A DNA stretch of 64,000 nucleotides, taken from NCBI RefSeq assembly GCF_001677475.2, contig NZ_CP015229.1; one strand, given 5' to 3'. Below are positions 8,013 to 8,078 of this stretch, one piece after another. Every line of letters starts with the position of its first letter. The first letter of the stretch is position 1. The notes below the pieces were generated by a model. That model was given only the letters and a program-made list of their open reading frames with translations. It had not been told where the DNA came from and ran no database searches. Made by a program: the position numbers and the translations under genes. The DNA is from Escherichia coli (GTDB lineage Bacteria > Pseudomonadota > Gammaproteobacteria > Enterobacterales > Enterobacteriaceae).

Positions 8013-8029
8013 ATTGCTCTAATAATTCC
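8013..8029 (+). promoter_or_regulatory. C1-repressor operator
   Basis: ATTGCTCTAATAATTCC, 14/17 to consensus with the full ATTGCTCTAAT core. Confidence 0.6.
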
Positions 8030-8035
8030 ATATTT

Positions 8036-8067
8036 TTAAAACGTGATGTACACTCATCACGTTTTTT
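8036..8067. terminator. rho-independent terminator (bidirectional hairpin)
   Basis: AAAACGTGATG-loop-CATCACGTTTT stem with A-run before and T-run after. Confidence 0.6.
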
Positions 8068-8078
8068 ATTAGAGCAAT
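8062..8078 (-). promoter_or_regulatory. C1-repressor operator (inverted relative to 8013-8029)
   Basis: reverse complement ATTGCTCTAATAAAAAA, 14/17. Confidence 0.6.

Follow-up and report, generated by a model that had tools for sequence, protein, structure and literature searches.

We have analysed a 66-bp intergenic module within a window of Escherichia coli DNA (the whole stretch of 64,000 nucleotides, from contig NZ_CP015229.1). Our main reading, to which we would give a probability of about 0.6, is that the module is a composite element, in which the terminator of the upstream unit would be nested with a promoter of pmgR and pmgS that is clamped by the repressor C1. That the module corresponds to the operator pair OpmgRa/OpmgRb of P1 (formerly Op86a/Op86b) is practically certain. 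This pair is already known and annotated in GenBank for both P1 and P7; what we present is a refinement of the annotation and no discovery, and finding the pair again adds nothing to the catalogue of P1 control sites. The refinements, of modest specialist interest, are a conserved putative terminator absent from the annotation inspected, a probable relocation of the -10 hexamer and an invariant spacing of 66 bp.

The operator pair and its surroundings

Judged by similarity, the window is a P1-like phage-plasmid. Its positions 7000-9600 have 98.2-98.7% identity to P1, P7 and other P1-like phage-plasmids, and the segment 7900-8320 was found in 686 plasmid records, in 677 of them at 95-99% identity. 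The 66-mer at 8013-8078 recurs without any difference in P1 (AF234172, 82152-82217) and in P7 (AF503408, 84533-84598). A comparison with the paired operators of P1 had been proposed in an earlier note on this DNA, and its outcome was this complete identity with the annotated OpmgRa/OpmgRb. The record AF234172 labels both sites monovalent C1-controlled operators that control pmgR and pmgS. In the P7 record the sites control the sht operon, whose genes shtA and shtB are the counterparts of pmgR and pmgS. The older names Op86a and Op86b imply earlier experimental work. The two genes are virion-assembly genes kept off in the prophage by these annotated C1 sites. Without pmgR, an essential gene, heads and tails stay unjoined (PMC9024508), so that its control affects the yield of transducing lysates. 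The coordinates of all the features are collected in Table 1.

Table 1. Features of the module and of its neighbourhood, in positions of the window.
Feature	Position	Strand	Remarks
ppp (Metallophos)	6621-7313	+	ORF list, P1 annotation
pmgQ	7310-8011	+	Terminal gene of upstream unit; end of its stop codon 1 bp ahead of operator a; ORF list, P1 annotation
C1 operator a (P1 OpmgRa, formerly Op86a), ATTGCTCTAATAATTCC	8013-8029	+	Consensus match 14/17, core 13/13; AF234172 82152-82168; P7 Op(sht a), AF503408 84533-84549
GenBank-predicted PpmgR	8014-8042	+	-35 TTGCTC 8014-8019, -10 TAAAAC 8037-8042; "predicted" in AF234172; position-weight score 4.0
Candidate -35, TTCCAT	8026-8031	+	17-bp spacer; overlaps last 4 bases of operator a; weak in P1, better in relatives (TTTACT, TTGATT)
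Hairpin AAAACGTGATG / TACACT / CATCACGTTTT	8038-8065	+	Arms 8038-8048 and 8055-8065; loop 8049-8054; G+C-containing core 8042-8048 / 8055-8061
Candidate -10, TACACT (the hairpin loop)	8049-8054	+	In top sigma70-like site in 8/8 lineages; TATCAT or TATTAT in relatives
T6 tract	8062-8067	+	U-tract of putative intrinsic terminator of the pmgN-ppp-pmgQ unit; directly 3' of core stem
C1 operator b (P1 OpmgRb, formerly Op86b), ATTGCTCTAATAAAAAA	8062-8078	-	Consensus match 14/17, core 13/13; annotated in P1 (AF234172 82201-82217) and P7 (Op(sht b), AF503408 84582-84598)
Shine-Dalgarno AAGGTG of pmgR	8083-8088	+	4 nt ahead of ATG at 8093; from sequence
pmgR	8093-8311	+	ORF list, P1 annotation
pmgS	8313-9575	+	ORF list, P1 annotation
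Terminator-like hairpin closing pmgR-pmgS	9595-9629	+	U7 tail; -18.1 kcal/mol; top site in whole-window core-stem scan
c1 (cognate repressor gene)	20343-21194	-	282/283 identical to P1 C1.100

Each operator has three mismatches to the C1 operator consensus ATTGCTCTAATAAATTT, all of them within its variable last four positions. The 13-nt cores of the two form a perfect inverted repeat, the site of operator b (8062-8078, minus strand) being the reverse complement of TTTTTTATTAGAGCAAT. Over the window, 12 sites with three or fewer mismatches to the consensus were found against 0.26 expected, a count that was reached in none of 100 shuffled sequences. The earlier description of two C1-operator 17-mers in opposite orientation was therefore correct, except that they lie 32 bp apart (8030-8061) and not 33 bp. 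With this separation, and with each site monovalent in GenBank, the pair is not of the bivalent type of C1 operator, in which two overlapping inverted 17-mers make up one palindrome of ca. 28-30 bp. A scan for inverted operator cores of the form TCTAATAA N30-50 TTATTAGA gave, among the matches listed, three P1-type copies and otherwise random A+T-rich repeats.

The sole difference between the repressor encoded in the window and P1 C1.100 is at residue 193, a G here and a C in the thermosensitive allele, so that this is presumably a wild-type repressor. In P1 just 25 bp separate pacB from c1, whereas the window has inserted ORFs between them (18635-20310). There an operator-like site (18642-18658, TTTGCTCTAATAAATTG) precedes two ORFs, one of the Ash family and one for an ANT/KilAC antirepressor. 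The same insert is found in RCS47 (91% identity), vB_EcoM-673R5 and JL22, and it may be a second C1-controlled antirepressor adjoining c1. The region studied is also flanked by a direct repeat of ca. 1.9 kb (1540 bp of it exact), with copies at 2157-4105 and 45616-47564 that lie 43.5 kb apart. The second copy has 86% identity to transposase and AAA-ATPase genes of Klebsiella phages, and the two look like insertion sequence copies in a P1-like backbone.

The module follows the phosphatase operon (ppp and pmgQ) and precedes the genes at 8093-9575 (pmgR and pmgS), as had been pointed out. From operator b to the ATG of pmgR there are only 14 bp, which include the Shine-Dalgarno sequence, so any promoter of pmgR must sit inside the module; the downstream promoter of the earlier note, if taken as separate from the operators, is not supported. 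The upstream unit, from pmgL to pmgQ, has the late promoter LPpmgL and predicted sigma70 promoters with the C1 operators Op82 and Op83. These promoters are C1-controlled or Lpa-dependent, and lpa is itself C1-controlled, so that the hairpin should see little transcription as long as C1 is active. In 8013-8092 there was no match at two or fewer mismatches to the -22 box of the P1 late (Lpa-dependent) promoters (AAATGACTA, AAGTTACTT or ATGTGACTT, taken from the P1 annotation), and inside pmgQ four near-matches were found against a chance level of about two.

On the other side, a second terminator-like hairpin lies 20 nt past the stop codon of pmgS and is absent from the annotation of the P1 record. 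With it, pmgR-pmgS looks like a self-contained and closed two-gene unit. Across the 22 kb of AF234172 inspected there is no annotated terminator feature, not even at this textbook hairpin, so that the absence of one at the module means little. Two other hairpins were seen in the neighbourhood. One of them, TAGCTC/GTTTTTT/GAGCTA (7981-7999, plus strand), is a small and weak structure at the 3' end of pmgQ (-8.5 kcal/mol, z -2.4). The other is G+C-rich, with 8-9 bp (CATGCCGC...GCGGCATG, 10204-10224), and lies downstream of Op88 (10154-10170), where it separates the promoters controlled by Op88 from the pmgT operon. Its T-run is on the minus strand only, and there is no minus strand gene nearby to terminate.

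The candidate promoter of pmgR and pmgS

We compared the junction between pmgQ and pmgR in eight diverged lineages (PmgS 52-70% identical) that comprised Cronobacter phage JK004 and contigs from Salmonella and from metagenomes. The gene order at the junction was kept in all the relatives compared. A first scan of IMG/VR, with a PmgS alignment, retrieved only loci of 98-99% identity, which served for SNP counts but are too close to show divergence. A scan with the 27%-identical P0029 gave no match, and no JK004-like plasmid came up when the plasmid collection was searched with JK004.

Two candidate promoters inside the module would overlap operator a, both of them weak in P1 according to a simple sigma70 position-weight scan with weights taken from the classical compilations of E. 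coli promoters. One of them is PpmgR as annotated in AF234172 and NC_005856. According to this model transcription would start near 8049-8050 and be occluded by operator a alone, with operator b as an accessory roadblock at +13 to +29 and the hairpin as just a terminator or something incidental. We consider this unlikely. The same kind of prediction was made at Op88 (P2pmgT), PpmgR scores 4.0 in P1 and L086, and its -35 TTGCTC, being part of operator a, is conserved, all of which counts in its favour. However, the record itself labels the promoter "predicted", and its -10 lacks the invariant final T. Among the relatives this -10 becomes TGAAGC or TGCGGC in JK004, L094, L087 and L091 and TAAAGG in L084, while L088 reads TTAAGG there. 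In 6/8 lineages the site is not among the five best, P1 and L086 being the exceptions, and a score of 4.0 turns up once per 76 nt.

The second candidate has its -10 in the loop of the hairpin, and this site ranks first in all eight lineages (tied in L094), with scores from 5.2 in P1 to 10.8 in L084. In P1 both candidates are at background level, a score of 5.2 occurring once per 152 nt and one of 4.0 once per 76 nt on the plus strand of the window, and on the minus strand the A+T-rich spacer reaches promoter scores of up to 9.2 in four lineages. What speaks for the loop hexamer is therefore its conserved position, together with the precedent of Plpa, a P1 promoter of the same geometry that is listed without the word "predicted"; the layout of P4cre/Oc1e is similar. 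From this analogy and the scan we would put the chances that the loop provides the -10 of the pmgR promoter at about even. PpmgR is probably misplaced by 12 bp in the reference records, which is useful to know when P1-like phage-plasmids are engineered or annotated. A promoter on the minus strand was considered for the spacer and discarded; its position is not conserved in the other four lineages and there is no gene for it to serve.

The fold changes given by limma are, by convention of the package, log2 values. Such values are available from RNA-seq of infection with P1vir (Table 2; PMC8201110, Table S1), per gene and not as coverage, so that they cannot prove termination. At 10 min there was a 5-6-fold step up at the junction between pmgQ and pmgR, which speaks for an early promoter within the module. 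Between 10 and 30 min the upstream unit increased by ca. 4.5 log units and pmgR and pmgS by only ca. 1.6, and at 30 min the latter were on average no higher than pmgQ. The late surge of the upstream unit (ca. 22-fold) was thus not added to pmgR-pmgS, a pattern that is compatible, within the reach of per-gene data, with at least partial termination at the module.

Table 2. Log fold changes per gene after infection with P1vir (PMC8201110).
Time and host	pmgO to pmgQ	pmgR	pmgS
10 min, wild type	6.95-7.39	9.02	9.99
10 min, dksA	6.09-6.63	9.00	9.09
30 min, wild type	11.3-11.8	10.81	11.70
30 min, dksA	11.0-11.2	10.44	10.59

The hairpin and the fixed spacing of the operators

The perfect hairpin that had been described between the operators is indeed there, is conserved and resembles a terminator. 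It has 11 perfect pairs (four of them G-C) and a 6-nt loop, with a folding energy of -13.4 kcal/mol (z = -6.56), and none of 200 shuffled sequences folded as well. The core stem alone is less outstanding, with 7 pairs (4 G-C) and -8.5 kcal/mol, and ranks about 30th of the 70 candidates in the window. On the plus strand the core is followed by TTTTTTAT, i.e., by the U-tract expected of an intrinsic terminator, and this T-run is at the same time the weakly conserved 3' end of operator b. On the minus strand the stem is followed by TTTT and then AAAAA (tail UUUUAAAAAU), so that the run of six T is present on the plus strand only. The built-in promoter and terminator scan of the tool did not flag the site, since the stem extends into the T-run and A-U pairs absorb it; a terminator scan based on core stems recovers the hairpin. 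A search of Rfam with 7700-8500 gave no match.

The hairpin folds in all eight lineages, with energies between -7.5 and -19.1 kcal/mol. In the alignment of the stem 93.1% of the cells are paired (against 37-72% in slid controls) and four pairs have changed on both sides. Across the relatives G.U combinations outnumber A.C ones by 16 to 4 in the stem, so that the pairing makes sense as plus strand RNA. In L091 the hairpin is preserved by a stem in a shifted register (-16.5 kcal/mol). A tract of U5-U6 comes directly after the stem in 6/8 lineages, on the plus strand only; in both L084 and L088 its place is taken by TCTTGATTAG (UCUUGAUUAG). Altogether we think that the hairpin probably acts as a terminator of plus strand transcription. 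The terminator had been described as bidirectional, a description that does not hold: the U-tract and the G.U pairs suit the plus strand only and the neighbouring genes are all on this strand, with none convergent.

Variation was also examined among ca. 80 near-identical P1-like viral contigs. Eight of the 13 variants in the module fall in the 14 stem positions (8042-8061), and five of these eight break a pair (the loci are L010, L028, L036, L040, L045, L064, L067 and L071). No variant was seen in either operator core or in the loop. The stem variants could reflect a relaxed constraint, a mutational hotspot at the palindrome or sequencing error.

The total length of the module, from operator a through the hairpin to the end of operator b, is exactly 66 bp in the eight lineages. 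In two of them, L084 and L088, the hairpin lies 1 nt farther from operator a, with one alignment gap on each side of it, and the total is still 66 bp. This displacement under an unchanged total suggests that it is the distance between the operators that is constrained. The fixed spacing provides a simple and testable handle on a possible cooperation of C1 monomers at separated sites. A stricter version of the composite would be that terminator and promoter are obligatorily nested, with the terminator loop as the -10 of the downstream promoter, and that the C1 monomers, 49 bp apart centre to centre, bridge cooperatively, perhaps via Lxc, both silencing initiation and roadblocking residual transcription from upstream. 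If this were true, the invariant 66 bp across lineages down to 52% PmgS identity would reflect a stereospecific complex, but we regard this version as doubtful.

A more distant relative is L093 (PmgS 27% identical). At the same junction it has a perfect 15-bp inverted pair, AAGATACTAATTTAT (L093 2704-2750), that shares the core CTAAT with the P1 operator and is otherwise different in sequence, with a spacing of 17 nt. The pair flanks TTTACA-N17-GATATT, a promoter-like arrangement whose -10 would precede operator b by 8 nt (7 nt in P1). There is no hairpin in this module, so that termination is not essential to such a module, and no distinct terminator was seen ahead of the operator pair either. 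No further copies of the L093 operator were found in the 7.3 kb of L093 covered, and its divergent sequence suggests that it has co-evolved with a different C1-like repressor.

That the hairpin is no terminator at all seems improbable to us. It would then serve to stabilise or process the 3' end of the upstream mRNA, or be a palindromic DNA site for some other protein around the -10. The absence of the U-tract in L084 and L088, where the stem is kept and even lengthened, would fit with this, and so would the block GGTGTAT(C/T)AT, conserved as sequence in 7/8 lineages. However, the U-tract does follow the stem in the other six lineages, Rfam offered no match, and the compensatory changes and the register shift maintain the pairing while the sequences of the arms change, which argues against a site recognised by a protein through its sequence.

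In the composite that we favour, two monomer-binding C1 operators in inverted orientation would clamp a compact boundary element of the pmgR-pmgS unit. Transcripts of pmgN-ppp-pmgQ would form the hairpin with its U6 and largely stop there, on the plus strand only. The mRNA of pmgR-pmgS would come from a nested sigma70 promoter whose -10 is most likely the loop TACACT and whose -35 abuts operator a. With this -10 transcription would start near 8059-8062, so that the new mRNA would be devoid of the 5' arm and escape termination; an mRNA from the GenBank PpmgR, starting in the loop, would escape likewise. In the prophage, C1 on operator a would cover the edge of the -35 and C1 on operator b the region from about +1 to +17, and the promoter would be shut. 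Once C1 is inactivated, pmgR-pmgS would be turned on as an early-class unit. It seems to form an early unit of two genes, insulated and with a terminator at either border, both of them unannotated in the inspected parts of AF234172.

The earlier note had proposed instead that C1 bound at both sites could loop or occlude the terminator or the downstream promoter, so that read-through from ppp-pmgQ into pmgR-pmgS would depend on the repressor. In favour of this proposal are the looping by C1 that has been described for the c1 operators, the overlap of operator b with the U-tract, the position of operator a 8 bp ahead of the stem, and the strictly kept 66 bp, which could reflect two C1 molecules acting together. 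We found no support for it and judge it very improbable. Termination acts on RNA, and a repressor bound to the DNA downstream would block the polymerase and not let it pass. C1 and incoming transcription should rarely coincide, given that the upstream promoters either are C1-controlled (Op82, Op83) or depend on Lpa. The behaviour of pmgR and pmgS is that of a separate early unit (PMC8201110), L093 keeps the operator pair without the hairpin, and the layout is accounted for by simple repression of a promoter within the module.

Comparison with known control sites

The closest known system is the P1 pair OpmgRa/OpmgRb, which is the same element, with the same 66 bp and the same flanks (pmgQ on one side and pmgR-pmgS on the other). 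The reading proposed here departs from the record AF234172 in the promoter, for which the record has the predicted PpmgR, and in the terminator, of which it has none. Op(sht a)/Op(sht b) of P7 is again the same 66-mer, and the gene names alone differ.

Another bivalent C1 operator of P1, besides those at c1, is Oban (formerly Op72). The bivalent Oc1ab (formerly Op99a and Op99ab) resembles the module in having two inverted 17-bp C1 sites on one promoter, but in the bivalent operators the sites overlap within ca. 28 bp, in contrast to the 32 bp that separate them here. As regards the promoter, a parallel is Olpa/Plpa (Op94/P94), which drives the late activator gene lpa. Its -35 is at operator positions 15-20 and its -10, TATTAT, at 37-42, the geometry that the loop -10 would have, with a spacer of 16 bp. 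Unlike the module, Olpa is one operator by itself; it lacks an inverted partner site, and its -10 is not framed by a hairpin.

In E. coli and its phages, intrinsic (Rho-independent) terminators have, like the module, a stem-loop directly followed by a U-tract, located past the final stop codon of a unit and with an A-tract 5' of the stem. Compared with the canonical ones, the module has a modest stem (the seven core pairs and -8.5 kcal/mol given above) and a U-tract that is lost in two lineages. It also differs from them in that its U-tract is at the same time part of a repressor site and its loop seems to serve as a -10 hexamer as well.
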